Source of the DNA: an uncultured Gammaproteobacteria bacterium
GTDB taxonomy: Bacteria > Patescibacteriota > Microgenomatia > UBA10105 > UBA927
NCBI GenBank assembly: GCA_964629685.1
Contig: CAZVTT010000005.1
Location: 1-63,265 of the forward strand
Reading direction: 5' to 3'
DNA length: 63,265 nucleotides
A model generated the notes under the pieces. The model made no database searches. It saw only the letters and a program-made list of their open reading frames with translations, and was not told where the DNA came from. Of the stretch, positions 29,340 through 48,479 are shown in pieces; within the stretch, counting starts at the first letter, position 1; every line of letters begins with the position of its first letter. The position numbers and the translations under genes were made by a program.

Positions 29340-29342
29340 CCT

Positions 29343-30164
29343 ATGGGAAAAATTCGTGTTGCAGCATTAGGTGACGAAAAACAGGAAAAAGCACAGAAGA
29401 AAAAAGCGGAAGTTCGCCGTGAGGCTAAGAAAGCCAAAAAAGAAAAAGCAGAAACTCCGGAAACGGATGTACTGAGTGCCGTGCCGGAAACCGCAGAAGC
29501 CGAAGCCAAAACCGAAGGAAAAGAGAAAAAAGGCAAAGGCGAAGACGGCGAAGTGAAACCCAAGACCAGATCCCCCAAGTATCTGAAAGCCGTTAAAATG
29601 GTCGAAAAAGACACGCTATACACTTTGGCTGACGCAGTAGAACTTCTGAAAAAAACCAGTTTCAGCAAATTCGACGGCACAGTAGAGTTGCACATGAATC
29701 TGAATAAAGCCATTCTGGGAGACAAAGCCGATTACCGGAACAGCGTAACCCTACCCCATGGCACCGGAAAAGAGGTAAAAGTAGTGGTAGCTGACGAAGA
29801 TACCATTAAAGATATCGAAGCCGGTAAATTTACATTTGATATTCTGGTAGCTCATCCCAGCATGATGCCGAAGTTAGCAAAAGTCGCCCGTATACTCGGA
29901 CCCAAGGGATTAATGCCGAACCCGAAGAACGGTACGGTAACGGACGATCCGGAAAAACGGGCGAAAGAATTATCCGGCGGGAAAGTAAACTTTAAATCAG
30001 AACCCGGGAACCCTATCGTACATTTGAGTATCGGAAAAGTATCCTTTGACGACAAAAAACTTACGGAGAATATTAAAGCCGTATTTGAAGTTGTCGGTTT
30101 ATCCAAAATCGTCAAAGCCACTATTTCGGCCACCATGGGACCGGGAATTAAACTGAAAGTTTAA
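29343..30164 (+). CDS. rplA: 50S ribosomal protein uL1 with long N-terminal extension
   Basis: SKFDGTVELH, LPHGTGK, LGPKGLMPNPKNGTV, TMGPGIK. Confidence 0.97.
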   Translation: MGKIRVAALGDEKQEKAQKKKAEVRREAKKAKKEKAETPETDVLSAVPETAEAEAKTEGKEKKGKGEDGEVKPKTRSPKYLKAVKMVEKDTLYTLADAVELLKKTSFSKFDGTVELHMNLNKAILGDKADYRNSVTLPHGTGKEVKVVVADEDTIKDIEAGKFTFDILVAHPSMMPKLAKVARILGPKGLMPNPKNGTVTDDPEKRAKELSGGKVNFKSEPGNPIVHLSIGKVSFDDKKLTENIKAVFEVVGLSKIVKATISATMGPGIKLKV

Positions 30165-31114
30165 TCCTTCTTACACCAGCGCAGTTGCACATACGGTGCA
30201 TTCGTACCGGCAACAGTGCCGGAATTGGCGATAGTTATTCCGGTAGTATTTGACGCAGTATTACCACTCATACCTCCCGTTGCTGCTCCCAAAGAATCTG
30301 AAGAAACTGATCCGGAATTTCCCCCAGTTACATTCCAACCATGCATATGTTTTAAAGTTCCCGGACCGTGTAAATGGCCAGGATCGGTAACGCTGTGGGT
30401 ATGTTGACCTACTGCCCTGTTTTCCAAATTCGTTAATGCCGTTCCGACAGTTCCCGAAAGAGTGCCGCCTGATGGAAGACCCACAATGTATCGTCCTTGT
30501 GCAGCAGTATACTCTGTCCAACCGGTAGGACAAGCCGCATCAAAGGGAGCAATCATTCCCGAAGGAATGCCGCCGGCTCCGGTTTGCCAGGATGCTTCCC
30601 CGGCAGCATCGGAGGTAAGTACTTTTCCCGATCCCGGATTACCGCCGGTAATTTTTACTTTGCCTTCCACGATCACGTTCCCGTTTCCGCTAGGTGAAGT
30701 TGCCACACATGGATCCGACGTACAGACGAATAGATTATTTGACAGCACTTTTACCGGCAAAGCGGATGCGTACGTATCGAATCCCAACGACTGTAGATAG
30801 GCTTCTGCCACGTCTCCCTGTTTCATGGTTGCGGTACTATTCATAACGATTGATCCGCCTGCCATCTGAATGGAATATCCCACCGGCCAGTAAATCGTCT
30901 GACCGGCATTTACGGTAAGCGTAACACCGGCAGGAACTATAAGATTTCCCGTCCGAATACCATGAATTCCGAACTGGTTACTGTCAAATGTACAGCTTTG
31001 CGGGAGTGTATAGTTCCCGCTCGCGGGCGGGTCACACGGGACAGCATAAGCCGGAGCTAGACCGAACGCACAAAAAAGTAATCCCAATAAAAATATTTTC
31101 CAGTAATTCTTCAT
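30161..31114 (-). CDS. secreted adhesin-like protein, phage tail-collar-like C-terminus (cassette 1)
   Basis: Signal peptide, SD GAGGAGG, GKVLTSDAAGEASWQ, IPSGMIAPF..CPTGW collar-like motif. Confidence 0.75.
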   Translation of the reverse strand: MKNYWKIFLLGLLFCAFGLAPAYAVPCDPPASGNYTLPQSCTFDSNQFGIHGIRTGNLIVPAGVTLTVNAGQTIYWPVGYSIQMAGGSIVMNSTATMKQGDVAEAYLQSLGFDTYASALPVKVLSNNLFVCTSDPCVATSPSGNGNVIVEGKVKITGGNPGSGKVLTSDAAGEASWQTGAGGIPSGMIAPFDAACPTGWTEYTAAQGRYIVGLPSGGTLSGTVGTALTNLENRAVGQHTHSVTDPGHLHGPGTLKHMHGWNVTGGNSGSVSSDSLGAATGGMSGNTASNTTGITIANSGTVAGTNAPYVQLRWCKKD

Positions 31115-31125
31115 ATGTCCTCCTC

Positions 31126-31770
31126 TTACCGTACGGTAATTTCTATCGTCGCCTTTCCGTTGGTGTCAGCTGCCTGCACCACTGCCGTATAAATTTTGTT
31201 ATGCGTATCGTTTACTTTCCAGGTGGCATTCCAGATATCTTGTCCGTCGCTTTGTCCGGTTCGCGTGAGGACATAATTTGATACCTGCGTGTCCGTTTTG
31301 AGAACCACTGAAACGGATGAAACCGGTACATTCCGGGCTGGCCCGACGAAAACAGTAAACGATTGTTCGGTTCCCGCTTTCGGATCCAATTCCGAGATAT
31401 CCACTTGCGAGATTTTCGGTCCAACGGTATTTCCCGAACGCACGAAGAAGGTTTGTTTTCCGTGTGCAATAGGCGCGATAGTCGGCGTCGGTGTCGCGGA
31501 TAATTCCGTAATAAACGTATGTACCAGTTCTTTTTCCGGATCGGTAACCGCCGTCAGATCCCGTCCGGTAATTTGGGGATTTTTTGTATTTTCCGGAATG
31601 AATCCCGTCCGTGCCAGGAATAGCCCGACAACAGGCGCCGACAAAACCAGAACGATAACCATAACAATCCTGCGTTTCTTGCTATACCAGAATCTCGCAA
31701 AGCGGTGTCGTTTGTTTATTGACTCATGTGATTCGGAAACGGAAGAATCCGGTGCAGATATATCACCCAT
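31126..31770 (-). CDS. single-TM protein with C-terminal Ig-like domain (cassette 1 adaptor)
   Basis: Start 31770 has TATAGT 7 nt upstream; clear paralog of 46985..47539. Confidence 0.75.
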   Translation of the reverse strand: MGDISAPDSSVSESHESINKRHRFARFWYSKKRRIVMVIVLVLSAPVVGLFLARTGFIPENTKNPQITGRDLTAVTDPEKELVHTFITELSATPTPTIAPIAHGKQTFFVRSGNTVGPKISQVDISELDPKAGTEQSFTVFVGPARNVPVSSVSVVLKTDTQVSNYVLTRTGQSDGQDIWNATWKVNDTHNKIYTAVVQAADTNGKATIEITVR

Positions 31771-31849
31771 ACTACCAACTATATCTATATAAAGTGAGAA
31801 TTCTGTGTCTGTACGTACACAACAATTGTAAGTAACCTCGCCTAGATAT

Positions 31850-33262
31850 CTAAGATTGTACGGGCAGTCTGGTTTTGGATAAATACCTTCCCTGGGGAGA
31901 AAAAATAATCCGCCAGCCTTCACCCTTATTCAGGTAATCCGTTTGCAGTAGCTCCGGAAAATCCTCATACGATAACCGTCGTTGGGGTTCTTCCAATTTA
32001 GCTATATACGTACGGATAGGATCCCCATGTCCTACTACCACAATATGCGCGGAACCGTTTGCCTCGCGTTGCATACGAATAACCTCAACCGCCGATCCCC
32101 ACCGTTGTTGTACCTGTACCAGAGACTCGACACCTGCTTCCAGCAACTCAGGCGTATAGACGTTTCCGCCTGTTTCATCCTGAAATTCCGCCATGGTAGT
32201 CCACCGTGACGTTACCGGTTCAGCCCGTGTATCACGCAGAGCAGCATCGTAGTGGATTTGTGTGGCACTACTTGCCCCGCGCTCGGCTAAACCCTTAAGT
32301 ACCGTTTCCGCGGATAACCGGGCACGATAAATATCCGAAGCGTGTATTGCATTAACACTAATGCGATTCTTAGCAATTATCTCCGCAAGGGCATCCATTT
32401 GAGCAAACCCTTTTTCCGTTAATCCCACCCGGTGTGTATTGAATTCATCCCAGTTATATACCAATCCGTTGTGATCAGTGTCCCCGTGACGGATAAGATA
32501 AAGAATAACCGGAATTTTTTGCTGTGTTTTCGCCTGAATATCTCTGTAAAAGATCCCTAAGGATTCGATCCACTCATAGGACTGTGCAACAATGTGGAGA
32601 GACACGACTTCTCCGGCTTTCATTCTTTCAGTGCCCCACCGTTCCGAAGGCCAAAGAATAGTATCCATTTTAGGATACCTCATCGCCTGCTCATCCAGAT
32701 ACCGATAGAACACCGGCAACGTAAACTGATCGCCTTGAGGATTACGTTTCGCCAAATTATCTATCACTATTGCTGCCCGATCCTGAGCTGATAACGCGTC
32801 AAACTGAATTGTCCCACGCAGAATGGGTTCGATGTTTACCGGGTCGTTCCAATATTGTTCATCAAAGCCCAATTTACGGAGCAGTAACCGCCGCATGGTG
32901 TCGTTGCGATAATATCTGTTAGGGATAGCCAGACGTCCCCAATCATGGTTAATCATATCGATGGTAAACTTCGGAACATCTATGTTTTGTCCATAGGCTA
33001 AAAGCGCATCTCCTAACAGTTCTGCCTGAAAACCAGCTTCATAGGTATGCTCCCACCAACTGGGTAATAGACGTGGATTGGCATACGGCGCCAGTGTTTC
33101 TAATACCTGAAACATGACTGCGATATCTTCGCGCTGTGGCAATTCTGCAGTAGATAAACGAGAAGCTTCAACCAGTGGCTTTCCCACTTCCACCATTTGC
33201 CGCATATATTTGGCTGTTTGTTCACCTTCGGCTAACTGAAGCGCAGTTAACAACTCGCCCAT
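31850..33262 (-). CDS. HD-domain / histidine phosphatase fusion
   Basis: EHT...NHDWGR (HD); LIRHGDTDHN and VVGHGDPIR (His phosphatase). Confidence 0.8.
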   Translation of the reverse strand: MGELLTALQLAEGEQTAKYMRQMVEVGKPLVEASRLSTAELPQREDIAVMFQVLETLAPYANPRLLPSWWEHTYEAGFQAELLGDALLAYGQNIDVPKFTIDMINHDWGRLAIPNRYYRNDTMRRLLLRKLGFDEQYWNDPVNIEPILRGTIQFDALSAQDRAAIVIDNLAKRNPQGDQFTLPVFYRYLDEQAMRYPKMDTILWPSERWGTERMKAGEVVSLHIVAQSYEWIESLGIFYRDIQAKTQQKIPVILYLIRHGDTDHNGLVYNWDEFNTHRVGLTEKGFAQMDALAEIIAKNRISVNAIHASDIYRARLSAETVLKGLAERGASSATQIHYDAALRDTRAEPVTSRWTTMAEFQDETGGNVYTPELLEAGVESLVQVQQRWGSAVEVIRMQREANGSAHIVVVGHGDPIRTYIAKLEEPQRRLSYEDFPELLQTDYLNKGEGWRIIFSPQGRYLSKTRLPVQS

Positions 33263-33351
33263 GATACGGTAGTATAGTACTTTAGCCTGTTACTCTCCAA
33301 CAAGATACTATAGGAAGTACCTACCATCTTTTGGGGCTCTAGAACGCCTTA

Positions 33352-33371
33352 CGCAAGGCCTCCCCTTGCGC
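33352..33371. repeat. REP-like palindromic 20-mer, copy 2
   Basis: Identical to 4099-4118; lies 4 nt after the hexokinase stop. Confidence 0.75.
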
Positions 33372-33375
33372 GAGC

Positions 33376-34524
33376 TTATAGTACGAGGTGGATGGCGCCC
33401 GCCAGGTCGCAATCGGGAACACGAACGATGGAAATGGCATAATTACCGGTTAGCTGATAGCTGCCAGTTTGTGGTTGGTTGTTACTGGTTGATGCTCTCG
33501 CTTCCGGAGACTGCAGCAGACGTATCCATTTGCTGACGAGGTGTTGATAGCGCCAGGCGTTCCAGTATACTCCGCCTTCCATAACCACAGTTATATTCCG
33601 TGCATACCAGTTTGCTATTCCGACGAGTTGGCAGGCAACCAGCGCCGCTGAACGTTCTAGAACTGCTTTGGCAATAGTGCTGCCGGGATGATTATCATCG
33701 TAGGCAATCGCCGAGACATCGGCACCACTTATGGCATCCGGAACGGACACACCCTGTTCCCCCGCATATACAGCATAAAGCTGAGACAAATATAACCCAC
33801 TGACTTCTTTTTCGTACACCGCTTTTCCCGGAACTTTGGACAGCTTGTCAACAATCTTCGCCGCATGACTCATGGAAAAATTTGAAAATAATCCGGATTC
33901 CGTATTTACTGCCGTATGTTCATCTTCAAAAACGGCAATATTGAGACCGGTTCCTACAATGCCAGCCACCAACTCGTTGCGCGAAAATTGGGATAACCCT
34001 GACAACAAAAGACAGATGGCGTCATTTGCCACGGACACCCGAATAGTCCGTCCATATTTCTGCCGCATATACGCTTCTAGCGTACCGGCCACCGGCTTTC
34101 CCAAAAGATCCGTAAGCCCATGTTCTTTTCCGCCACTCAGCAATATTCCCTCCAATTTGCCGTGAATAAACTCCGGTTTCATGGCAAACGCAAAATTGAT
34201 GGCCACCGTGCTGACTCCTGCAGGAATTCGCGCAGCAATAAACTGCATAAGTATTTCCGTATTCAGCAGTGTAGGGATACTCCCTTTTTCTTCCGATTCG
34301 ATATGGGGAAAACCATTTCTATTTACGACTACGGCTGCACGAAAAAGACTCCCCCCTATTACCAACGCGAGAAATGATTCACCGGGGTGAACCAGCGGCT
34401 GATCCGGCAAATGGTGACGGATATATGCGAGTGAGGTTGGTTTTCCCGCTTTTGCCGTTTCCAACTCTTGACGGAAGTCTGCGGCAATGTGCCGATACGC
34501 CCGTATATCAGAATTCTGATCCAT
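33376..34524 (-). CDS. eukaryote-type hexokinase-family protein
   Basis: IGGSLFR, FAF, ANDA, GIVGTGLN, NTESG, EGGVY. Confidence 0.8.
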   Translation of the reverse strand: MDQNSDIRAYRHIAADFRQELETAKAGKPTSLAYIRHHLPDQPLVHPGESFLALVIGGSLFRAAVVVNRNGFPHIESEEKGSIPTLLNTEILMQFIAARIPAGVSTVAINFAFAMKPEFIHGKLEGILLSGGKEHGLTDLLGKPVAGTLEAYMRQKYGRTIRVSVANDAICLLLSGLSQFSRNELVAGIVGTGLNIAVFEDEHTAVNTESGLFSNFSMSHAAKIVDKLSKVPGKAVYEKEVSGLYLSQLYAVYAGEQGVSVPDAISGADVSAIAYDDNHPGSTIAKAVLERSAALVACQLVGIANWYARNITVVMEGGVYWNAWRYQHLVSKWIRLLQSPEARASTSNNQPQTGSYQLTGNYAISIVRVPDCDLAGAIHLVL

Positions 34525-34544
34525 ATGTAGTATTCCGTATTGTA

Positions 34545-35318
34545 TCAGGACTGACGGAGTAATAATGAAGCTGCACCATAGTCTATGGCATATACCGTCT
34601 GCGGATTGTACCGCAGCAGGGACGCCGGAGATTCCGGATCTATTGGTCCCACAATGCTACGTTGCACACCCCAGGCTTTTGATTCACTCATCGCCAATAC
34701 CAAAATAGTATCCGCTTCCAGAATATTTGCCATCCCGATGGTAATCCCGGTGGTCGGCACTGCCGATTTGGGAAGGTTTAGTTTTTTCATCATCGCCTGT
34801 ATGGATTCTTCATCGAGCGTAATACTGCGGATTCGGGAATCTACCGGTGAACCCGGGCCATTCATCCCGATGTGACAGGTTTGACCCGGACCCATACCCA
34901 CAATAGCCAAATCGAGTTTTCCCTGTTCTTCTACAACGGCTGAAAATCCGGTAATTTCTTTTTCTATATCCGGCGCTGACCCATCCGGAAGGATGAGCTG
35001 TTCCCGCTTTACGCCTATCTGACTAAAAAAACTTTCCCACATCCGTTTTGCCGTACTGATCGGATCATTTGAATCAATCTTCCAATATTCATCAAGCCCG
35101 ATAAACGTCACATGCTCAAACGAAACCAGCCCGGATTTATACGCAGAGATAAGTTGGGCGATCAGCCCTTTGGTGGAATTCCCCGCGGCGACCATCAGCT
35201 TTGCATCCGGCCTCTCATGTACCAGATCGATCACCAGTTGAGCAGCGAACGCATCTACCTCCCGCTCGTGCGGAAAAATGTGAATGGTAGGATTGTTTTG
35301 CTCCGGGTAACTATTCAT
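34545..35318 (-). CDS. nagB: glucosamine-6-phosphate deaminase-like
   Basis: AAGNST, GLDEY, HIGMNGPGS, ITIGMANILEA, PASLL. Confidence 0.85.
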   Translation of the reverse strand: MNSYPEQNNPTIHIFPHEREVDAFAAQLVIDLVHERPDAKLMVAAGNSTKGLIAQLISAYKSGLVSFEHVTFIGLDEYWKIDSNDPISTAKRMWESFFSQIGVKREQLILPDGSAPDIEKEITGFSAVVEEQGKLDLAIVGMGPGQTCHIGMNGPGSPVDSRIRSITLDEESIQAMMKKLNLPKSAVPTTGITIGMANILEADTILVLAMSESKAWGVQRSIVGPIDPESPASLLRYNPQTVYAIDYGAASLLLRQS

Positions 35319-35454
35319 ACGATTCCCTCCCTAATAAACTGGCAGCTGCCTGATTACATGCAAACGCTACACTAAAATTATACCGGAGGAGCACTGCCGG
35401 AGCACTACGCTCCTCCGCGCTTTCCGACTTAACGATACTTCTTACCTTACTCCG

Positions 35455-37926
35455 TTAATTGGTTTCTTTCTTTTTATCCGCTTTCAGCGTGGGTTTATAA
35501 TCCGGCTGAGTCGGAACTTCCAGATACATATATGGTATTCCGGTCGAATCAGTGGGATCTACTATCCCCACATACCGATGTACCCGTTTACCGTCACGGA
35601 CCGTCCACTGCGCTAATATACCAATGGCCCGATCGACGTCGTACCACGGACGACCTGCTTCCGGACTACCGGGACTGGAAACACGCGTGTATCTGACAAT
35701 TTCTTCTCCATGACCCATAAATGCCTTGGTCCGGGGATCGGCAGAATGAACCACCAGTTTATTCTCTTTATCGGTAATCGTCACCGAAATCGCTTTGGGT
35801 TCCCGGCGTTTAATGGCGTCTGTCCCATCCGGTAACTTCATGGTTCGGGCATCCATAAGGGCTTTGGAATAGATATTGGCATGTAGCCCCCGTTCACGGA
35901 CTGTAGCCAATATTTCTGCCTGACGATCCGTCAGGACGACATCTTCCAGCTCAACGTTCGGCATAATACCGTTGTACACTGCCAATAAGTCATCTATCGT
36001 CATATCGGGGTAATTCCTAAGCGGATTTACCAACCGCATCATGGAAACTTCCCGGTCAAGGATAGTCCGCACATCTCCACGAGCAGTTTTATCCAACCGA
36101 TCTCCCATCTGCTCTACATAGCTGTCCCAATCCAATCCGGTGGCTGCATAGGCATCCCAGTTGGCGCGAATCCGTTTGTAATTGGCTTCAACGAACTCCC
36201 ATACGGGTGCCCCGCCTTCTTCCGCCATCCGTTGCAGACTATCTCGGGAAATGACGTTTGAAAGTCCCATCCGGTCAATCATGGCGTCCATTTCCAACGC
36301 AAATCCTTCCACTTCATGATCCGGAAGATCCCACACATCTTTAAACGCTTCCGCTTCGTTAATAATGATCCACTGCATGGCTGGCTGACCATCTGCAGGT
36401 TGATAGAACAGTTTAGCCGTTTCAGCTACCTGTCCCATCTTGTACATCATGGCCCAATCCTGATGACCAGGCATCCGACGCAATCCTTCAAGCGGATTTC
36501 CCATACGGGCTATCGTGTAATACATATCCAGTTTTACCGGCTCGCCTGCTTCCACTGCTTTCCGGATTTTACCGACGATATCTGCCCGTACCTCGTCCGA
36601 AATTGCCACGTGTGCACCATGATTACTAACCTGACTACTTTCCAACATGGCCATTATATTTTCGGAAATAATGTCGGGAGTATTTCCTTCCTGAAAATCA
36701 TCTTTTTTCATAAGCAAAGGCACAACCGGAAGTTCCTGCCACCAGGTAAACGGTCTGCCTTCCATGTTTGACATGGTGGGATCTGCCAAATGACCATCAA
36801 CAAGCTGAATATTGTCATAAAATAAACCTGTGAGTAACGGCTCCGCGTCTTTCGAAAGTTCACCGCTACGCACCCGGGCGTCATGCGCTTCCGCCATTTG
36901 TCCTTCAATTGCATTCTCGTGTATTGCCAATGCAGTCTGATACCGCTTTACCGTAAATACCGCCCGACCCCGCTCGATGAGTTCGCGGTTGGCCAATTCC
37001 GTGGCAGCTGCAAACCGTTCTGCAGCCTCACCAAATTGCGGCGATACTTTATTCCGTGCCTGCGCACGTTGTTCATCGGTTAAAATTTGATCTATTCCAA
37101 TTTCATCTACCGCACGGATGTGCGATGTTGCCAGAGCCGCTTTGGTAACTCCTTCAGAAATAAGCAGATGATATTCGCCCACTGTCCGCAGCATTTGTTC
37201 CCGTTTCAGGCGGATCGCTTCGAGCGCCTGATGTTCACTTACCAGCTGCGTTAATCGTCCCTTGTCTCCACACGCAAGTACCCGCAGAGAGAACGCTACA
37301 TCCGGCTCCATTTGGGTTAGTATGGTATCGACAGTACGGACATTGGCAGCAGCCTGATCTTTTCCTGCCAGAATTAATTCAGCCTTCTTCTTTTCTGCGG
37401 CGGCAAATTTGCCCGCCTGTTGCATAACCAATCCGTTTTCGCCGAAAAGATGATCACGCATGGTTTCTACCAGTTCTTCATTATCTTCGCCGGTCGGATT
37501 TACTGCCCGATGCATTTCGCGTCGGATGTTATAAGGAAGCCACTCACTGACTGATTTTTCATACGCTTTGCGGTGGCCGTTCCTCTGGTCTACGCCGAAA
37601 TTCCGGTCAAGATCGATGCGTCCGAACGCCTCACTGGGTTCTTCTGCCATAGCCAAGCGCAACAATCCCTGTTCCCGTGCCGTGGGAATGGCCATATCGT
37701 AGACAATCTGCGAAGTAAAATCCCGGTCGAGCAGAGCAACTTCGCCCCTATTTGCGTCGTACCGGGCTAGAACCATAAGGTCCGTGTCCTGACCTGGTAA
37801 TTCCTGAGCCAAAACCCGGGAAAAGAAGTGAACGACTCCCGAGGGTGTCTCTTCATGAAGCGCCGGAATATCATGTTCTGTTATCTGTAATCCGGAAAGA
37901 TCAAGTGCTTCAATTGCTACTGCCAT
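35455..37926 (-). CDS. helical N-terminal region fused to a Dit1/PvcA (isonitrile synthase)-like domain
   Basis: KIRKAVEAGEPV, ARMGNP..L...P, KLFYQP, FKDVWDLPD...MI..MG, PKAISVTI, KLVVH, GHG align in order with P. aeruginosa PvcA motifs; SD AAGGAGG. Confidence 0.7.
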   Translation of the reverse strand: MAVAIEALDLSGLQITEHDIPALHEETPSGVVHFFSRVLAQELPGQDTDLMVLARYDANRGEVALLDRDFTSQIVYDMAIPTAREQGLLRLAMAEEPSEAFGRIDLDRNFGVDQRNGHRKAYEKSVSEWLPYNIRREMHRAVNPTGEDNEELVETMRDHLFGENGLVMQQAGKFAAAEKKKAELILAGKDQAAANVRTVDTILTQMEPDVAFSLRVLACGDKGRLTQLVSEHQALEAIRLKREQMLRTVGEYHLLISEGVTKAALATSHIRAVDEIGIDQILTDEQRAQARNKVSPQFGEAAERFAAATELANRELIERGRAVFTVKRYQTALAIHENAIEGQMAEAHDARVRSGELSKDAEPLLTGLFYDNIQLVDGHLADPTMSNMEGRPFTWWQELPVVPLLMKKDDFQEGNTPDIISENIMAMLESSQVSNHGAHVAISDEVRADIVGKIRKAVEAGEPVKLDMYYTIARMGNPLEGLRRMPGHQDWAMMYKMGQVAETAKLFYQPADGQPAMQWIIINEAEAFKDVWDLPDHEVEGFALEMDAMIDRMGLSNVISRDSLQRMAEEGGAPVWEFVEANYKRIRANWDAYAATGLDWDSYVEQMGDRLDKTARGDVRTILDREVSMMRLVNPLRNYPDMTIDDLLAVYNGIMPNVELEDVVLTDRQAEILATVRERGLHANIYSKALMDARTMKLPDGTDAIKRREPKAISVTITDKENKLVVHSADPRTKAFMGHGEEIVRYTRVSSPGSPEAGRPWYDVDRAIGILAQWTVRDGKRVHRYVGIVDPTDSTGIPYMYLEVPTQPDYKPTLKADKKKETN

Positions 37927-38004
37927 GTGGTTGTCCTCCTTAAAAAATGGATACTACATCGTTTTCAACATCCCGGATTATGCAAGAGGAACAACCGTAC
38001 CGCT

Positions 38005-38063
38005 TGACCGCTATGGGACATTCTTTCTGACATTTTACCCATTTAACTGACATAGTCCTGACA
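38005..38063. promoter_or_regulatory. phased TGACA direct repeats (candidate OmpR-type boxes)
   Basis: TGACC 38005, GGACA 38016, TGACA 38028, 38048 and 38059 (spacings 11, 12, 20, 11). Confidence 0.5.
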
Positions 38064-38140
38064 AAATGGCCTCAGAATAGGCTAAAATCCTTGTTTCTCC
38101 CTCAAAAACACGCTACAATTACCTTGTCAGAGAGAATCAT

Positions 38141-40463: not shown

Positions 40464-40804
40464 GCTTGAGTGTCATTCGGGAATTGTGCCTGTTCTATAA
40501 CCTGGTCACGTTCATTGCGCACGCAAAACAGAAATGCTTCCAAGGGTCGGACACCTTCGGGGTATGTTTTCCACATGTTTACCCGTCGGCCGATATGAAG
40601 CTGCAGCCACTCGTAATCCACCACCGGTACCGTCTGGGAATCCGTCTCCGGCGGCTGAAACAGATACACTTCCCCATACGTCATTTCGCCGTCTACGGAT
40701 AATGTCGGCCCGAAAATGGAAATAGCTCCCGGTTTATACTCACTACGTTTGAGTTCACCGAAAAAATGCTGTGGTCCCTGAGGACTTGGAGATTCTGCGC
40801 CCAT
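40460..40804 (-). CDS. hypothetical protein (114 aa)
   Basis: Follows the 1274-aa ORF after 3 nt, on the same strand. Confidence 0.6.
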   Translation of the reverse strand: MGAESPSPQGPQHFFGELKRSEYKPGAISIFGPTLSVDGEMTYGEVYLFQPPETDSQTVPVVDYEWLQLHIGRRVNMWKTYPEGVRPLEAFLFCVRNERDQVIEQAQFPNDTQA

Positions 40805-40807
40805 AGG

Positions 40808-43800
40808 TTAATCGTGCCAGGTGAACCCACCGGCTAAAGGATGCGGTTCAGGATGTTCACAAACGGACCAATACGTATCCAACAGATCACGCCGGATTGC
40901 AGCTTTCAGTGATTGCCGGTTTGGCATATTTAGGTTCAATTTCATAATATCAGCGAGAATTAATACCCGAGCTTCTTGATTATCCACCGTAGTAAACGTC
41001 AAATCTTTATACCTGGCGTCCAGTAATTCATCGGATAATACATCAAGTTTTGCTTCCACTAAATCCAGGGCATAATCCAGATATGCCGGCTGTGCGTGGC
41101 GATGGTAACGGGCATACCCCGCCTCTTCCCGTTTGGCATATGAGGGGGGACAATAAATATTAAATGCCCCATCCGTGTTGTCCGTTACATAACGGTTATT
41201 CGTTGTCCGTTTCATACGGCCAATATACTCAACCCGAAGCTTTCCGGCAGCGTCACGGGATTCCCGCAGTAAATGAATGAACGCAGTCGATTTCGGAACC
41301 AGCTTTGAGACAATCGTTACATCATTATCATCGTGAATTCCCATGGCTATAAATGTTTCGTCCCCATCTTCCTGGATGTGAACTACCCACTGGTTCTCGC
41401 CGCTGTAATTTGTAAAATCACCGGCATAATTACTTTGAAAGAGATAGTCGCCATCATCCATAATATCTTTTAACCGCTTTTCCACTTCTCCTACACGCAT
41501 AGATTTATACGCATCCGGATGTTCATCTATAGACAGTCCGGCGATAAGCGCACTTAACCCGCCGCGATAGTCTACAAGCGTATAGAATTGCTGTGCACCG
41601 CGTCGTTTCTTTAACTCCGCACTCATTTTTGTTTCCGTACTGACATCATTTTCAATCGCAGCCAACACACTACCGCCGGCAACCGCGTAATGCTGTGACC
41701 ATAAACCTTTTTCCAGCCAATGGCGGTATACGACGCCGGGCGTAATAGTATCTTTATCCTTTTTCTGCCGCCAGGCACCGGGAGTCATATCCGGAGCACC
41801 CGCAGCCGGCATTACCCGTACAAATTCCACGGACTTTTTATCGGTAACCAGAATGGCCTCTGTCGCTACCATTCTCCTATGAATCTGAATTTTCCGTAAA
41901 TAGAAGCCGGGGGTTTTGGCTTTCACCATCTTGGCAACCCACGCATCATGTGCAGACAGATAATTTTCCTGCGATATCGTTAATCCGTCACCACCCAGCA
42001 ACACCTGCGCTGCGATAATCCCGTCATGTGAATCCGCCGTTACCACATCCATGCGTACCCTGGGATATCGTGGGACAGACGGTAAAGGAACCTGAAGCAT
42101 CATGACCGGCTCAAATCCGGTACCGGCAGCGTCCGGCTTAGTAGTGACTGCGAGAGTAACTTCGCGTCCCTTTGTACCCATAGTGAGATGCTCTTTACCC
42201 CCGCCCTTCCAGAACTTCGGTACGGAAACTCTGGCTTCTTTGGCTAACACGTCGTTCCACACCATCCAGACTTTAAGCTGCCCGGTTTTTTCGTCAATTT
42301 CCGATTCAAACACCCAGCCGATTCCCGTCTGTGCCACTGCCGGACTATTTGCGTATTCCACAGCCAACTGAGGACATTGACGGGCAATAGCGTCTATAAA
42401 CGATTGCGGCGGACGCTTTCCGAGAGTTTTTTCCGGTACGGACATGATTGCCATTACTTGTGGTGTCATTTTTTCGCGATACCATAATCTCCGCGCTGCG
42501 TCCTGAATTTCTTCCAATTGTGCCGTAGAAATAAATCCGTCCGGATGAACCCGTACGAATGCGGGGTTCGGCGTAGTACCTGCGGTCGGAGGAACCAATA
42601 ACCTCTTGGTCTGCGGATCATATACTAACTCCCCGTGAAGGAATTGATATAACGCGGTAAGTGTCCTATCGGCGACGGTGTCGGCGGCCATCCTGGTTTC
42701 CGCGTCTTTACGAATAGTAAATGTTTTCGCTGCAGTATCCCGGATTACCTCATACGCTGTAAGCGTACCGGTAGTTCCGAGCACCGGAACAAAACTGCGT
42801 TCGGTTCCGGCACCAGGCGGGAAATTAAACGCCACTGCTATGTCAGTGACATTTCCGCCCGGAGCACGCAACGCCCTGGCGAGGTTATACCTGATCATGG
42901 GTTGGAACTCCGGATCCATAGGGGTTTCGATTAATTCTGTTCTGGGCTGAGAGCCAGGCACATTGGGATTAGCAGGAAGAACTCTTTGGCTGAAGGCGGT
43001 TATGGTATTTGCGCCGACATGATACTCCGTTTGCCCGGCAAACCAGCTTGATTGATCCGGATTAATTCTGACAACAAGCCGAAGGTTATTCTTCGGTTGG
43101 GCGTACTCATCAAGGGAACGGGTAGCCCGCACATCGATCACATGAATGTTTCCAGCTACCGGAAGAACACCGTGATTTTCCCTATTCCATGTAGTCCAAC
43201 GGGCCACCAGCGTTTTTTGTTCCGTATCCGTGATCGGTATCTCAGTTACCGTTTGCGCCGCAATCCCTGCCGCTAAAGCCGTATACCCTTCTTCCACCGC
43301 TTTCTTCTCATACGCGAGCCGCAGATCACGGTAGCGTTTGGAAATGGCTGCCTGATCCATTTCCGCTTTCGTAATCGTACCCATAAATTCCGTTTCCAAT
43401 GGTCGGATTGGGCGGGATTCCACCCGTCCGCCGTCTGCATATATTTCCGTTTGTCCGTTCTTACATACGACAGTTTGTGCGGTTAACGGCGTTTCCGGGA
43501 ACAGGGTTTCCGCACCCGCATGGATGTTAAATCCTCCCGCAACTCCGCCATTTTCAGTTTTGATAGCCACGATCATTCTAGTCCGGCCATAATCATACTT
43601 TTTTCCCGGAATACAACTGAGTGCGTTAATGAGCAGAAGCGGATCGTCATGCACCGCCCAAACTTCCCGGACTCTATTTTCCGACGGCTGAGCATACCCT
43701 ACGAATTGTTCAAACGATACCTTTCCGGAAGAATCCACCATAATCCGGTAATTCCCGGTTTGAGCTTCATATAATATTTCCGTCGTCAGCCAGTCATGAT

Positions 43801-44623
43801 GGTCCCTGGCTATACGGGGTCCGATAATCCGGATAGGAGCATTCGTTTCCGTTTGCCGGTCCGGTTGAACCAAAATGGGGTCTGCTAAGCAGGCAATAAT
43901 GGCTGCTTCGTCTACGGAAACCGCTTTTGCATACACATTTGGTGGATTCTGCGGCGCTATAGCCCGTGCCGCCCGCTCGCGTTCCTGTAGGGTACGATTC
44001 TCTATTCCGGCAATAATTGCGGCCCGCTGCAACACATAATCGTGAGTTCCGATCAGCAGTTCCGAACCGCGTCGGCCGTAATATCCGGTAAACCCTTCCG
44101 TCATGGAATCCAATGATTGGGTAACGGCATCTGCGGGAACTTCGGGCAATTTAAAGTCTACGCCGACGTACACAGCGTCTTTTAACCGGAGCGCTCTTCC
44201 TTTCGTATCTAAAATCATCCGACCGAGTAAAAGTTCACGGGTCCTGGCGTCTGATTCGGTAATCATGGTATCGCGACCGACATCGTACGTCAGCATGGTC
44301 CCGTCTTCTCCTAAAAATTGCTTCCCCACCTGGGGTTCATCTAAATCGGCATTCTGCAGAAACCGCAGTTCATATTTCGCCGCATCTAGAGCCGGGTGCG
44401 GTTGATAGCCAGCGCGTACTTCTTCCGTCAGCACGTATATTCCTGCGCCGTAACCTTCCTGAATACCAATTTGTTTTTCTGCGGGAGCAACCGCCAGCGG
44501 GTCCAGAATGCCGTACCGTGGTAACGGACCTTCCACGGGACCATCCGGCGGTAACTGTTCCGGCTGTTCTTCTACCGGTGGAGGCGGAGGCGCATCGTGA
44601 ATAATTTCTGGTAAAACGGTCAT
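40808..44623 (-). CDS. very large hypothetical protein (~1270 aa)
   Basis: 3.8-kb open frame, TATACT upstream, no signal peptide or recognisable motif. Confidence 0.8.
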   Translation of the reverse strand: MTVLPEIIHDAPPPPPVEEQPEQLPPDGPVEGPLPRYGILDPLAVAPAEKQIGIQEGYGAGIYVLTEEVRAGYQPHPALDAAKYELRFLQNADLDEPQVGKQFLGEDGTMLTYDVGRDTMITESDARTRELLLGRMILDTKGRALRLKDAVYVGVDFKLPEVPADAVTQSLDSMTEGFTGYYGRRGSELLIGTHDYVLQRAAIIAGIENRTLQERERAARAIAPQNPPNVYAKAVSVDEAAIIACLADPILVQPDRQTETNAPIRIIGPRIARDHHDWLTTEILYEAQTGNYRIMVDSSGKVSFEQFVGYAQPSENRVREVWAVHDDPLLLINALSCIPGKKYDYGRTRMIVAIKTENGGVAGGFNIHAGAETLFPETPLTAQTVVCKNGQTEIYADGGRVESRPIRPLETEFMGTITKAEMDQAAISKRYRDLRLAYEKKAVEEGYTALAAGIAAQTVTEIPITDTEQKTLVARWTTWNRENHGVLPVAGNIHVIDVRATRSLDEYAQPKNNLRLVVRINPDQSSWFAGQTEYHVGANTITAFSQRVLPANPNVPGSQPRTELIETPMDPEFQPMIRYNLARALRAPGGNVTDIAVAFNFPPGAGTERSFVPVLGTTGTLTAYEVIRDTAAKTFTIRKDAETRMAADTVADRTLTALYQFLHGELVYDPQTKRLLVPPTAGTTPNPAFVRVHPDGFISTAQLEEIQDAARRLWYREKMTPQVMAIMSVPEKTLGKRPPQSFIDAIARQCPQLAVEYANSPAVAQTGIGWVFESEIDEKTGQLKVWMVWNDVLAKEARVSVPKFWKGGGKEHLTMGTKGREVTLAVTTKPDAAGTGFEPVMMLQVPLPSVPRYPRVRMDVVTADSHDGIIAAQVLLGGDGLTISQENYLSAHDAWVAKMVKAKTPGFYLRKIQIHRRMVATEAILVTDKKSVEFVRVMPAAGAPDMTPGAWRQKKDKDTITPGVVYRHWLEKGLWSQHYAVAGGSVLAAIENDVSTETKMSAELKKRRGAQQFYTLVDYRGGLSALIAGLSIDEHPDAYKSMRVGEVEKRLKDIMDDGDYLFQSNYAGDFTNYSGENQWVVHIQEDGDETFIAMGIHDDNDVTIVSKLVPKSTAFIHLLRESRDAAGKLRVEYIGRMKRTTNNRYVTDNTDGAFNIYCPPSYAKREEAGYARYHRHAQPAYLDYALDLVEAKLDVLSDELLDARYKDLTFTTVDNQEARVLILADIMKLNLNMPNRQSLKAAIRRDLLDTYWSVCEHPEPHPLAGGFTWHD

Positions 44624-44773
44624 AGAATGCAATGCAGTATACTCTTGCTATAGGCTTACGTCAAGCACGTTTTGTGCCTATTGTGACACGTATCACTCTT
44701 CCGCCGTACCATACCGTAAGACAACATCCATATAAAACGTAGTGTGTACCGTGAACGGATTCGGATCAACGAC

Positions 44774-44943
44774 TTGCACGGATAACGGCTATACGATATA
44801 ATTCCCAATACGTAATCCTAAAGACAGTAGGCATTTCACCCAACGGTGAAGAGAAGTCCTACCGAGGGGTGGCCAGTTCAAACCCGTTTCGTCACCAAGA
44901 CGTTTCGAGGAGAAATGACATCTCGCGGTAGCGAGATTTTTTT
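44774..44943 (+). promoter_or_regulatory. rplJ promoter and L10 leader with attenuator hairpin
   Basis: TTGCAC-N17-TATAAT; AAAGACAGTAGG...CCTACCGAG L10-leader signature; ATCTCGC-ggta-GCGAGAT-T7 just before the ATG. Confidence 0.8.
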
Positions 44944-45462
44944 ATGGCAACAACCCGAAAGATAGATACAGTACAGGAATTAACCAAAAAAGTAACGGAC
45001 GCCAAATCCATTATCCTGGCAGACTACCGCGGCTTAAAACATAAGCAACTCGAAGAATTACGCCGCCAGCTGAAAAAGGTAGACGGTGAATTCGTCGTTA
45101 CGAAGAATCGCTTGTTGCTCAAAGCCCTCGGCGACAGAGGCGAATTGTTAAAGGAAGCGCTCAATGAAACAACCGCTACCCTGTTCTCTTACGCTGATGA
45201 AGTAACGCCGCTGAAGGAAATGCTCAAATTCTTTAAAGGCGCCGGCATCGGAAAAACCAAAGCCGCTCTCGTAGGAACCACTGCGTTTACGGCAAAAGAT
45301 GTAACCAGGCTTTCGACATTACCCACCCGAGAAGTATTGTTATCCAAGATGGTAGGACAAATGCAGGCTCCATTATACGGACTGCACAATGCACTTACCT
45401 GGAATATCAGATCGTTAGCATACGCATTACAGGCAATTAAAGAGCAAAAAGCGAAAAACTAA
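44944..45462 (+). CDS. rplJ: 50S ribosomal protein uL10
   Basis: IILADYRGL, VTKNRLL, LSTLPTREVLLSK. Confidence 0.96.
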   Translation: MATTRKIDTVQELTKKVTDAKSIILADYRGLKHKQLEELRRQLKKVDGEFVVTKNRLLLKALGDRGELLKEALNETTATLFSYADEVTPLKEMLKFFKGAGIGKTKAALVGTTAFTAKDVTRLSTLPTREVLLSKMVGQMQAPLYGLHNALTWNIRSLAYALQAIKEQKAKN

Positions 45463-45618
45463 AAAATATTTTTAACACAAGAGAGGTTTTATCCACCATT
45501 ACTTACCTCTCGCCTTAGTTCATTTGAACTGCGGTGCGAGGAGCGTAATCGGCGGATGTAAGAATCGCTAGATTCATATTCATTCACCAAGCGATTCTAA
45601 CAAAGGAGGTGACACAAA

Positions 45619-46005
45619 ATGGCAAAACTTACACAAGAAGAATTAATGCAAACAATCGGCGAAATGACCGTTATTGAACTTGCTGATTTCGTAAAGGCTC
45701 TGGAAGAAAAATTTGGTGTCACCGCCGCTCCCGTCGCAGTAGCCGCCGGACCGGCAGCTGCCGCTGACAGCGGAGAACCCAAAGAAGAACAGACAGTATT
45801 TAACGTCGTAATTACCGCCGCAGGCGATAACAAAATCGGCGCGATTAAAGCTGTCCGTGAACTCGTTCCGACACTCGGACTTCAGGAAGCTAAAGCACTT
45901 GTAGAATCAGCTCCCAAAGACGTTCTAACCGGAGTGAATAAGTCTGCTGCAGAAGAAGCGAAGAAAAAACTGGAAGCTGCAGGAGCAAAAGTCGAACTTA
46001 AGTAA
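45619..46005 (+). CDS. rplL: 50S ribosomal protein bL12
   Basis: [42 protein letters not shown]; SD AAGGAGGT. Confidence 0.98.
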
Positions 46006-46024
46006 ATCGTTTGTATTTAACAAG

Positions 46025-46049
46025 AAGTCCCCCGTAAGGGGGATTTTTT
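46025..46049 (+). terminator. rplJL intrinsic terminator
   Basis: TCCCCC-gtaa-GGGGGA-TTTTTT. Confidence 0.85.
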
Positions 46050-46055
46050 GTGGGA

Positions 46056-46439
46056 TTAAAACATTCCGCCGGGAATACCATTACCCACCACGAACCAAAT
46101 TCCGTGCAGATATAACCCTACCCACAACGCGACACCTGCACCGGAAAGCCAAAGTATCCATTTGGGAATTTTACCCGTTTGACGAATGACCAGATAGATA
46201 AGCGGAAGCAATACGGCGGTAGATATGGGAATCCAGGCAATAAGCTGCAATTGCCGCCAACACGTAATTTCGCGGCAGGGCCAGACGATTTCAGATAACC
46301 AGATAACGCTGGGGACGAGAAGTGCCGAAAGAAAAATTGCCAAAAAGAATGACTGCGTTACCCGCAAAGCAAGCGGAGGCACGGAATGTCGCTTTTTTAC
46401 TGTTTTTCGTATCGTATGAGCAGGTCGCTTGGCAGGCAT
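46056..46439 (-). CDS. small 3-TM membrane protein
   Basis: TATACT 6 nt before ATG 46439; three hydrophobic segments. Confidence 0.7.
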   Translation of the reverse strand: MPAKRPAHTIRKTVKKRHSVPPLALRVTQSFFLAIFLSALLVPSVIWLSEIVWPCREITCWRQLQLIAWIPISTAVLLPLIYLVIRQTGKIPKWILWLSGAGVALWVGLYLHGIWFVVGNGIPGGMF

Positions 46440-46520
46440 ACCACTAGTATAACAAGTTAGTTGCAAGTTGCTAGTTGAGATTGTACCAACCGTCAATCAA
46501 CAACCATCAATCAGCAATTA

Positions 46521-46600
46521 TTTATGATGGCATCTGTATGAGTTTGACACCTCTTGACAAAGTTTGATAGCTGATGATACTGTGTGATTAGTAATGATCA
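46521..46600 (+). promoter_or_regulatory. promoter overlaid by a 10-bp-phased TG(A) array
   Basis: TG at 46525, 35, 45, 55, 65, 75, 85 and 95; TTGACA at 46544 and 46554. Confidence 0.65.
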
Positions 46601-46691
46601 TATTCGCAGATCATTCCCCCTCTTAGACTGCACACAGATGAGGGATTTCCATACCACGCAAGAAACATTGCGACATCGGAAAGGAATACCT

Positions 46692-46892
46692 ATGGCACTT
46701 GGAGATGAATGGCCAGATTTATTAACAGTACGTGAAGTAGCTAAAATCCTGCGCGTTTCTCCGCTGACTATTAAGCGCTGGGGCAAACGGGGTAAATTAC
46801 CCGCAATCCGGATAAATTCGCGGGGTGACCGACGCTACAAAAAAGAAGCGGTCATGTGGTTGCTGGGACTTCAACAAAAAGGTCAAGTGTAA
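46692..46892 (+). CDS. BldC/excisionase-like MerR-type HTH DNA-binding protein (66 aa)
   Basis: LLTVREVAKILRVSPLTIKRWGKRGKLPAIR..SRGDRRY; SD AAGGA. Confidence 0.9.
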   Translation: MALGDEWPDLLTVREVAKILRVSPLTIKRWGKRGKLPAIRINSRGDRRYKKEAVMWLLGLQQKGQV

Positions 46893-46984
46893 CGTCACGA
46901 CTAGTGTATTAACATACCATTCCGTGGTATGTCAGGCCACTGATCCGCTTCCTCTCTTACGGTATTCTGATATACACCCACATT

Positions 46985-47539
46985 GTGAGTCTGATTGTGA
47001 AACATGTTGCCGTCGTTCCTATCATCGGTGTTGGCATAGGTACTTCCCTGCTGTTAGCGGTAAGTGCCTGGCTGTATTTTTCCCCACAAATCCGATCAAC
47101 CACCAGCGCACATCCGATCGTAACACCACCGGCTGTTTCTCCCACTATCTCTGTCCCTAAAAACACCCCCGTACAAGGTGAATCATCCGCACTCCCTTTA
47201 CCTCAAGGGAAAGTCCCCTTTTCTGTTAGTTCCGGACAAAAAACCGGACCCCAATTCCGGAACGGATTCATAGATCCATACGACCCGAAAACCGGTGAAA
47301 CACAAACCGTTTCTGTACTGATCACAGGTAAATCACCCGTTATCACCGTAACAGCCACTATGAGAACGGACACAGCATCAAAAACAAATACCATGAAATT
47401 ACTGGAGGGTACTGCCGCGGATGGCAAATGGGAAGGCAGTTGGACAGTAACCGATACGCACCACCAAACATACAAACTGATTCTACACGCACTGGATTCC
47501 ACCGGAACAACAAATGTGATTGATATTACGCTCCGATAA
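46985..47539 (+). CDS. single-TM protein with C-terminal Ig-like domain (cassette 2 adaptor)
   Basis: Paralog of 31126..31770 (GK.F.V.SG..GP, DPK.G, TDT, W.V.DTH, ITxR end); start codon uncertain. Confidence 0.75.
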   Translation: MSLIVKHVAVVPIIGVGIGTSLLLAVSAWLYFSPQIRSTTSAHPIVTPPAVSPTISVPKNTPVQGESSALPLPQGKVPFSVSSGQKTGPQFRNGFIDPYDPKTGETQTVSVLITGKSPVITVTATMRTDTASKTNTMKLLEGTAADGKWEGSWTVTDTHHQTYKLILHALDSTGTTNVIDITLR

Positions 47540-47540
47540 T

Positions 47541-48479
47541 ATGAAATCATTTCTGCGCATCTTGATTCTGACCGGAGGGTGTTTGATGGCACTTTGTACC
47601 CTTCCGCAGGTGCATGCGTGTACAACTACGGCTAATTCCACCCTTATGATCACCACTTCCTGTGGATTCGGTGGCGAGGTAGCCGGTGTCGATAACGGCA
47701 ATATCATCATTAATTCCGGTGTTACGTTTACTGTCCAAAGCGGACAGACAATCCTGCGGAATTCGGGAAATTCCATTCAGAATAATGGGAATATTGTGCT
47801 TATTGGAACCGCAAAAATTATGCAATCCTATTTGTGGTGTCTGGATGCCGACGCTGACGGATATTGTGCCGCGTTAACATACAGTTACGGCGATGTAAGT
47901 CCGGGAGCTGGGTACAGAAGACTGACGAATATGACGACACTTGCTACTGCAGACTGTAACGACAGCGTATATGGCAATAGTTGTGCGAAAAGAGTTTTTG
48001 CAATGGCGGTATCTAACGGTAACCTTGGCGGCCTCGCCGGTGCTGATTCCCTATGTCAGTCACGGGCGAATATATATGTTACCAATCCCGGAACTTTTAA
48101 GGCATGGATGTCTTCTACTACGGTAAGTGCCAGCAGCAGAATGACCCATTACACGAGTAATTACACACTGGTGGATAACACCGTCATCGCCAATGGCTGG
48201 TCAGATCTTACCGATGGCACGTTAGACAGTATCATTAATAAGGATGCAAACGGAGCAACGTTTTCTAACAATACCATCTATACGGATACCAACGCCGCCG
48301 GGGCGGTTTTTTCCGCCAATGCGACATACTCCTGCAACAACTGGACGAATGCCGGTGCATCCTATTCGCATGCTCCGGGGGCTACCAATGCGACGGATTT
48401 CTATTGGACCACCACCAATAGTCCTTCCGAAATGAAAACGTGCAATTATGCCGGCGGAATATTCTGTTTTGAACAGTAA
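47541..48479 (+). CDS. secreted protein with DUF1554-like C-terminal domain (cassette 2)
   Basis: Signal peptide, N-module shared with 30161..31114, KRVF....NGNLGGLAGADSLCQ and terminal IFCFEQ. Confidence 0.8.
   Translation: MKSFLRILILTGGCLMALCTLPQVHACTTTANSTLMITTSCGFGGEVAGVDNGNIIINSGVTFTVQSGQTILRNSGNSIQNNGNIVLIGTAKIMQSYLWCLDADADGYCAALTYSYGDVSPGAGYRRLTNMTTLATADCNDSVYGNSCAKRVFAMAVSNGNLGGLAGADSLCQSRANIYVTNPGTFKAWMSSTTVSASSRMTHYTSNYTLVDNTVIANGWSDLTDGTLDSIINKDANGATFSNNTIYTDTNAAGAVFSANATYSCNNWTNAGASYSHAPGATNATDFYWTTTNSPSEMKTCNYAGGIFCFEQ

Follow-up and report, generated by a model that had tools for sequence, protein, structure and literature searches.

Paired genes for a membrane-anchored protein and a secreted protein with exchangeable tips: a candidate two-part surface adhesin of Patescibacteria

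Introduction

The closest described counterparts of the system treated here are cohesin–dockerin display, the receptor-binding proteins of phages, the adhesins of type IV pili and the DUF1554 proteins of Leptospira. The system is a two-gene cassette that occurs twice in contig CAZVTT010000005.1, a stretch of 63,265 nucleotides (nt) that was analyzed as a whole and is called the window below. Each cassette consists of gene A, which encodes a small membrane protein, followed directly by gene B, which encodes a secreted protein made of a conserved module and a variable tip (A1 and B1 in cassette 1, A2 and B2 in cassette 2). The family to which they belong is a widespread two-gene unit, unnamed and without relatives in Pfam or the PDB, and the genetic side of its interpretation is well supported. 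The most economical reading, to which we give slightly better than an even chance, is that A and B form a surface adhesin of two parts: A would tether B through the module, and the tips would bind ligands on other cells.

The parallel with cohesin–dockerin display is that a cell-bound beta-sandwich on a Pro/Thr-rich linker, here A, would capture varied secreted proteins through one small module, and that the D-x-D-x-D-G loop following the B module resembles a calcium-binding loop. The two systems, however, have no sequence relation, and neither Cohesin (PF00963) nor Dockerin (PF00404) appeared in Pfam scans of A1, A2, B1, B2 and 117 relatives of B. The B module comprises about 75–100 amino acids (aa) and is predicted to be all-beta, whereas dockerin has two helices; moreover A and B, whose binding to each other is putative, are strict one-to-one neighbors or fusions, whereas cohesin–dockerin display uses one scaffold with many clients.

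With phage receptor-binding proteins the cassette shares the principle of a constant attachment part and horizontally swapped distal parts. The tip family of B1 has repeats in common with phrog_2097, phrog_25747 and phrog_5795, and carries HxH motifs as T4 gp37 does (PMC11705849). Unlike in phage fibers, however, the cassette is cellular, A is a membrane protein and not a virion adaptor, and B1 itself stays below every PHROG and Pfam threshold.

Swappable binding ends are also a feature of type IV pilus adhesins, among them the PilV shufflon of IncI plasmids (PMC9045228), modular pilins, PilY1/PilC and MshQ-like giants. In relatives of the present family the cassette is often linked to pilin genes and to giant proteins with DUF2341 and LamG domains, and a role in cell–cell contact is the expected one. 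In contrast to those adhesins, A and B are not pilins and have no prepilin leader, and the cassettes of the window do not lie beside pilus genes; unlike the PilV shufflon, the A–B cassettes have neither a shufflon recombinase nor inverted repeats.

Finally, the tip of B2, which matches DUF1554 and weakly Endostatin, resembles the DUF1554/endostatin-like domains of Leptospira surface lipoproteins, but its DUF1554 match lies 1.6 bits under the cutoff, and the domain is mounted on a conserved module and paired with gene A. To our knowledge, such an architecture has not been described for Leptospira proteins.

The two gene pairs of the window

The original prediction of two paralogous A–B cassettes with the same gene order and tight coupling is borne out by the coordinates, the alignments and the gene junctions, all four genes being present in the list of open reading frames. 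In cassette 1, which lies on the minus strand, A1 (31126–31770) encodes 214 aa from the ATG at 31770 and matches the hidden Markov model (HMM) of the A family with an E value of 4e-49; gene callers give a shorter form of 178 aa that starts at 31662 (P0009). B1 (30161–31114, minus) encodes 317 aa and matches the module HMM with an E value of about 1e-28. The spacer between the two genes, read directly from the sequence, has 11 nt (31115–31125, minus), and the junction reads TAA-GAGGAGG-ACAT-ATG, with GAGGAGG (31125–31119) placed 4 nt ahead of the B1 ATG. Cassette 2 lies on the plus strand, where A2 (46985–47539) encodes 184 aa from a GTG start and B2 (47541–48479) encodes 312 aa, with a module HMM E value of 1e-42; a single base separates the A2 stop from the B2 start (TAA-T-ATG). 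The genes within each pair are translationally coupled.

A1 and A2 are 33% identical across their C-terminal 118 aa (E 1e-17), and the motifs originally listed for A, namely GK.F.V.SG..GP, DPK.G..Q, TDT, W..W.V.DTH..Y, A.D..G and a terminal IT.R, are present in both. B1 and B2 are 35% identical, over residues 1 to about 120 only (E 6e-11), and the module motifs C-x12-SC.F, GN, GVT.TV..GQTI and SIQ..G.IV are likewise found in both proteins. Beyond residue ~120 no significant alignment of B1 with B2 was obtained, in agreement with the claim that their C-termini are unrelated. When all six frames of the window were searched by tblastn with these proteins, A and B turned up in two copies each and no more.

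Pairing in relatives and natural fusions

The contexts of A genes were gathered by exact look-ups, a metagenome scan and a genome scan, and every open reading frame in them was compared with local HMMs for A and for the module of B. For 20 of 24 non-redundant A genes, the B module is encoded by the gene that comes next on the same strand, at a gap of −4 to +18 nt, which supports the supposed co-occurrence of A and the module in other genomes. In two of the 24 (L018 and L025) the next gene encodes another secreted or membrane protein that lacks the module, and in the remaining two the contig ends before it. Within the loci examined, the module is confined to the gene after A. Searches with single sequences returned few relatives, each of them in an A-then-B pair; in one contig two such pairs stand in tandem (A-B-A-B), with VKOR and DsbA genes behind them.

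Moreover, at least 12 natural A–B fusions, in which the A domain immediately precedes the module, occur among the best 150 B-module representatives. The fusion proteins begin with a hydrophobic anchor, and their match to the module starts at profile position ~23–27, the signal peptide being gone, 2–8 residues past the "...ITL(R)" end of A. Read-through of adjacent genes would retain the B signal peptide of about 25 residues, and the fusions are therefore regarded as real. They are the strongest available evidence for a joint action of A and the module at the membrane's outer face.

One fusion of 927 aa (P0201) starts with an archaeal class III leader of the pilin/archaellin type (…KGKSQAAMEFLMSYGWAILVV…), followed by a domain of about 120 aa, the A domain (residues 170–283), the module (285–387) and a long tail. 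This leader suggests that the A–B pair also occurs in archaea, on a pilin-like anchor.

The membrane protein A

An alignment of 49 sequences gives the layout of the A family, which consists of a basic N-terminal tail, one long hydrophobic segment, a Pro/Thr/Ser-rich linker and a domain of about 110 residues; G75, P89, P101, Q107, D129, W149, W153, Y163 and the C-terminal R184 are invariant. In A1, the membrane helix spans residues ~35–53 (31612–31668, minus), preceded by the basic tail and followed by the Pro/Thr linker and a beta-sandwich at residues ~100–214 (31129–31473, minus). The AlphaFold2 (AF2) model of A2, built on the 49-sequence alignment, has a mean predicted local distance difference test (pLDDT) score of 85.5. 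It places a membrane helix of 22 residues at positions 11–32 (47015–47080, plus), a disordered Pro/Thr/Ser stalk at 33–70 (47081–47194, plus) and a nine-strand immunoglobulin (Ig)-like beta-sandwich, with pLDDT above 90, at 71–184 (47195–47536, plus), the end of which is the family-invariant ...ITLR. A Foldseek comparison of this model with the PDB retrieved CrdA (9ll2; E 3e-4, TM-score 0.64), together with the dimerization domain of sulfite oxidase, NPC2 and SoxZ, and a comparison of A with viral models gave generic Ig-like matches only. By this modeling the ectodomain of A is an Ig-like/E-set beta-sandwich, an assignment that holds at the level of the fold only.

Pfam scans of A1 and A2 and a search of the PDB with the A profile found neither a Pfam match nor a sequence relative, and neither A nor the module common to the B proteins falls within a curated family. 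A search with a profile of five A proteins returned 49 clusters, all of 130–219 aa and none with a Pfam match; one cluster is annotated as Candidatus Woesebacteria, and the named relatives are Woesebacteria. A profile scan of genome contigs with the five-sequence A alignment returned nothing, and a second scan returned two loci. For pattern scans, the alignment of 49 A sequences and one of six B modules proved too variable. When 2.9 million viral contigs were scanned with the A alignment no relative was found, and on this ground a phage origin of the cassette was rejected. The likeness to phage fiber swapping that had been drawn from the window thus stands for the logic of the system and partly for its tip domains, but not for its origin.

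The secreted protein B and its module

Members of the B family begin with a signal peptide, followed by a module of about 75–100 residues with a Cys pair and then by the motif GVDNGN...G.TLT...GQT. In most of them, the module is succeeded by W.xDxDxDGY and a Cys-rich MopE-like stretch; B1 lacks the D-x-D-x-D-G-Y loop. The pattern D-x-D-x-D-G-Y...DC.D is at least 90% conserved in the family, with D104 and Y108 invariant (alignment A3), and the Pfam model of the MopE-like motif (PF11617), which B2 does not match at E <= 1, is matched by 4 of 117 relatives. B2 (plus strand) is composed of a signal peptide at residues 1–26 (47541–47618), the conserved, predicted all-beta module with the Cys27–Cys41 pair at 27–96 (47619–47828), the D-x-D-x-D-G-Y/MopE-like Cys motif at 97–142 (47829–47966) and the DUF1554/endostatin-like tip at 143–312 (47967–48476). 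In B1 (minus strand), the signal peptide occupies residues 1–24 (31043–31114) and the module residues 25–103 (30806–31042); they are followed by a subfamily "neck" at 104–183 (30566–30805), common to P0125 and L007_B549 at 65–68%, and by a putatively tail-fiber-like tip with three HxH motifs at 184–317 (30164–30565). The neck of B1 ends with the motif G.G..G.VLTS...G...W (…GSGKVLTSDAAGEASW…), which is also present in giant repeat proteins (>1,600 to >3,000 aa) encoded upstream of A in L030 (1–4845) and L013/L014 (1–5811), and which may be a shared fiber-like building block.

The two cysteines of the module are lost together in one relative (L001_B583), which fits a disulfide. The alternative that B2 is a lipoprotein, considered for the Cys after its signal peptide, was rejected because this Cys and the module's second one vary in concert, both being absent from L001_B583. 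The AF2 model of B1 contains short beta strands in the module (pLDDT 63–82) and a tip below 50, with a mean pLDDT of 45.7. Its best Foldseek match has an E value of 0.64, and matches to the beta-helix proteins tapirin and ComZ (E 0.6–9) are insignificant; a beta-solenoid fold is not claimed for B1. PDB sequence searches with B1, B2 and the B-module profile retrieved nothing meaningful, and the module is without a Pfam relative; from the modeling it can be taken as all-beta with moderate confidence.

A search with the B-module profile against 1.84 billion representative proteins yielded 973 clusters (at 50% identity) at E <= 1e-3, of which 479 reached E <= 1e-10. The description of the module as the N-terminus of B applies to 122 of the 149 representatives analyzed and fails for the other 27, in which the module is internal; 12 of these 27 are the A–B fusions. 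In long forms of B (L030, L032 and L033), it lies about 900 residues into the protein, after glycine-rich, fn3-like or TSP1-containing regions and ahead of a Cys-rich tail, so that the module is the constant part, with variable parts on either side. None of the 149 representatives has an LPXTG-like signal, and a C-terminal hydrophobic segment is present in two of 160; B almost never has an anchor of its own, which makes a tethering partner plausible. A different route to a membrane anchor for a module-bearing protein is found in P0113, which combines a HupE/UreJ membrane domain (E 9e-51), three tail-like repeats of the B1 type and, at its C-terminus, the B module.

Genes for VKOR and DsbA-type thiol-disulfide oxidoreductases stand directly after A–B cassettes in the P0003 contig and in L033 (5278–6018), which fits a Cys-rich, exported B. 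These adjoining genes are also what would be expected if A were a dedicated extracytoplasmic helper in the folding, export or maturation of a disulfide-rich B, and if mature B were then released or attached elsewhere. A small membrane protein tightly coupled in translation to a hard-to-fold, Cys-rich secreted partner would suit such a role, and phage fiber genes are often flanked, before or after, by specific chaperones. However, A precedes B in stable fusions from at least 12 lineages, which suits a permanent tether better, the long Pro/Thr stalk of A is typical of surface display, and its fold is unlike that of any known chaperone. We regard the helper function as decidedly improbable.

The tips of B and their exchange

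The DUF1554-like nature attributed to the B2 tip is a borderline case. Pfam DUF1554 (PF07588) is matched over profile positions 3–134 of 136 with an E value of 9.4e-6, but at 25.9 bits against a curated cutoff of 27.5; precomputed Pfam data list PF07588 for B2 and P0002, with the ortholog in L004 marked "weak". Matches to DUF1554 in the B family reach 2.5e-10 (5 of 117 members), and the match of the B2 tip to Endostatin is weak (E 0.014).

The tip of B1 had been described as phage tail-fiber/collar-like, and its collar half finds no support in Pfam: B1 has no Pfam match, and Collar (PF07484) was found neither in B1 at E <= 1 nor, at E <= 0.1, in its relatives P0141, P0104, P0113, P0179, P0068 and L001_B583. 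The tail-fiber half finds support only transitively, through relatives of B1. B1 itself matches phrog_8469 only (E 0.96), whereas P0141, which is 59% identical to B1 over the tip, matches phrog_2097 (E 5.7e-6) and phrog_25747 (E 1.3e-4), and P0104 and P0113, which carry the B1 tip repeat, match phrog_5795 at 1e-23 and 8e-31. The tip of B1 corresponds to one copy of a repeat of about 55 residues, P.GWTR..LD.RFPRG..GGTGG..HTHT, which is present in 3–6 copies in other family members. Fibers of the T4 gp37 type and others bind iron through HxH motifs (PMC11705849), and the three HxH motifs of B1 recall these metal-binding sites, an analogy that serves as a lead only.

In a Pfam scan of 117 members of the B family, most had no match at all, and the remainder was diverse: DUF1554 in five, DUF2341 and the MopE motif in four each, Fib_succ_major, fn3, TSP_1 and Hint-type domains (Hint/PT-HINT) in three each, and LamG and others as single cases. 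A single-linkage clustering of the tails, which lumped 120 of 146 into one cluster, presumably via the shared Cys-rich MopE-like repeats, was dropped in favor of these Pfam counts and of pairwise mosaics.

A constant part joined to exchangeable ends is a hallmark of polymorphic toxins, and the Hint/PT-HINT domains of three family members would be in keeping with secreted effectors of this kind, in which the module would be the trafficking or receptor part, the variable ends toxins or enzymes directed at other cells, and A a factor for export or self-protection. But no toxin or enzyme family was detected in B1 or B2, and the tips that can be identified are of the binding type (DUF1554/endostatin-like, DUF2341, LamG, fn3, TSP_1, Fib_succ_major). 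Nor does a small gene recur downstream of B in the loci, the window having the convergent genes rplA and galT there. The effector explanation is accordingly given very little credence.

The exchangeability of the tips that had been proposed from the two cassettes is upheld by this diversity and by recombination mosaics among relatives, which follow three mutually independent patterns; all cases come from metagenome contigs, in which chimeric assembly is a caveat for each single case. In the first pattern, B1 agrees with P0141 in module, neck and tip, and P0125 and L007_B549 have the module and the neck in common with them (65–68% up to residue ~183) but an unrelated tip. In the second, L021 and L023 have A genes that are 99% identical, with a DNA identity of ~100% that begins 300 nt upstream and extends to B residue ~205; past this residue ~500–650 nt cannot be aligned, after which the downstream identity returns to 0.98. 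This is a replacement of the tip only, between near-identical strains. In the third, the DNA of L021 and L016 is 100% identical over a stretch that starts at B residue ~86 and runs past the tip, but identity is only 35–78% in A, in the region upstream of A and in B up to residue ~85. Judged from these sequences, A travels with the front of the module, and the tip has moved between diverged backgrounds.

Genomic surroundings and the link to type IV pili

Pilin genes, recognized by G/FTLIE-type leaders and Pfam N_methyl, are present in the fetched flanks of eight locus groups, about a third (L001, L005, L018, L019/20/31, L021, L022, L029 and L030). In L031, a giant protein, a TPR protein and three pilins precede A; in L018, A is followed by a 1017-aa protein and two pilins; and in L030 the order is A, B and then a pilin, the stop of B overlapping the pilin start. 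A pilin trio stands beside the cassette in two distant relatives (L001, 12419–14177; L031, 7217–8955), with a Cys-rich member of 205–236 aa and two further members of 163–180 and 154–172 aa, which are 39–48% identical between the loci. Genes for giant LamG/DUF2341 proteins and for TPR/Wzy_C proteins are found repeatedly upstream of cassettes, and LysM-M23 peptidases also recur. The L030 contig (CAYWLV010000002.1, 142 kilobases (kb)), which encodes a giant repeat protein, A, a B of 1166 aa and the overlapping pilin, comes from a metagenome-assembled genome labelled "uncultured Gammaproteobacteria"; unless this is due to a wrong label or faulty binning, the family extends beyond Patescibacteria.

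These surroundings give rise to the main rival explanation, a pilus-linked device in which A would be a membrane docking or loading factor at the base of a type IV pilus, and B would be passed to minor pilins for display on the filament, in the manner of non-pilin adhesins of the PilY1/PilC type or MshQ-like giants. The pilin genes near eight locus groups, some within the same operon (L031, L030), the recurrence of giant LamG/DUF2341 and TPR/Wzy_C proteins upstream, and the archaeal class III pilin-type leader at the start of the fusion P0201 all speak for it. However, the prepilin leader (G/F-T-L-x-E followed by a hydrophobic helix) matches no A protein and no open reading frame of the window, and A gave no match to N_methyl (PF07963). 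The leader pattern scan found no pilin gene in the 63 kb that hold both cassettes, and none lies near the long loci L007, L010, L013 and L032–L034. The link between cassette and pilins is frequent, not obligatory. In addition, the fusions already supply a membrane anchor, for which no pilus is needed, and the resemblance of the B model to ComZ in Foldseek lacks significance (E 4). A pilus-based device is considered unlikely.

In the window, cassette 1 is tail-to-tail with rplA, and rplA and galT are the convergent genes after the two cassettes. Cassette 2 lies about 1 kb past rplL, behind the genes for a 146-aa membrane protein and an HTH_17/MerR protein, which have no homologues near other cassettes and are not counted as parts of the system. 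The HTH_17/MerR-type gene (46584–46892) immediately precedes A2. It has a strong promoter-like site at 46554–46581, none lies between this gene and A2, and it may be co-transcribed with cassette 2; promoter and terminator scans were at chance level. The gene pairs rplK-rplA (28911–30164) and rplJ-rplL (44944–46005), usually contiguous, are 14.8 kb apart here, and the stretch between them holds cassette 1, a histidine phosphatase fusion, a hexokinase-like gene, a NagB/Pgl-like gene, an ATPase-like/OmpR-type regulator, and proteins of 823 and 1274 aa, both without a family. The guanine-plus-cytosine content of the rplK-rplL region is not distinct. The window sequence is found in bioreactor metagenomes, and contigs of four metagenome runs cover cassette 2 as short fragments that are uninformative on the tips.

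A model of A–B function

The proposed two-part adhesin would work as follows. A would remain in the cytoplasmic membrane through its uncleaved N-terminal helix and hold the Ig-like sandwich outward on the Pro/Thr-rich stalk. B would be exported by Sec, lose its signal peptide and, with no anchor of its own, be kept at the surface by its module, which would dock non-covalently on the A sandwich, with the help of the D-x-D-x-D-G-Y loop in most members. The rest of B would be the ligand-binding part, exchanged between lineages by recombination, with a DUF1554/endostatin-like tip of the lectin type in B2 and a tail-fiber-like HxH repeat in B1, and a cell with two diverged pairs in its genome would display two heads. 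The joint loss of the paired cysteines in L001_B583 and the VKOR/DsbA neighbors argue for an extracytoplasmic setting and, in this respect, for the model.

Several points weigh against it. The A genes of L018 and L025 precede other secreted or membrane proteins, and the reverse test, starting from matches to B, yielded only two cases. The B module counts 973 clusters at 50% identity against 49 clusters of A, the latter from a less sensitive search, and B genes without A are possible. The divergence of A and that of the module are correlated (r = 0.65, Mantel p 1e-4), but such a correlation is equally expected from shared ancestry and does not separate co-adaptation from common descent. Finally, the A–B interface is one that we infer, the model of B1 is poor, as its mean pLDDT of 45.7 indicates, and the adhesin role is proposed from the types of domain in the tips.

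A broader and more speculative version of the tethered adhesin, possible but doubtful, is that the family represents a general plug-and-socket display of Patescibacteria and, on the strength of one fusion, of some archaea. Here the Ig-like A would be a membrane- or filament-anchored socket, and the module with its calcium loop the plug of about 1000 clusters of secreted heads. Cognate specificity would let several pairs coexist in one cell, and two recombination hot spots, one within the module and one after the Cys-rich linker, would reshuffle sockets and heads between strains and thereby determine the host cells that these epibionts are able to grip.

Significance

Ultrasmall Patescibacteria live attached to other microbes, and the only molecules known to us by which they choose and hold a host are type IV pili. 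Such pili serve host binding in a few cultivated Saccharibacteria (PMC12206443). The A–B family combines a clear division of labor, in a compact unit of two genes, with a large natural library of heads, in the form of ~1,000 module-bearing clusters at 50% identity. The natural fusions provide built-in positive controls, and head exchange has been traced between near-identical strains, so that partner recognition by Patescibacteria becomes a question that can be tested at the bench. If the pairing of socket and plug is true, it would constitute a new small protein–protein docking pair, with a possible use in surface display.

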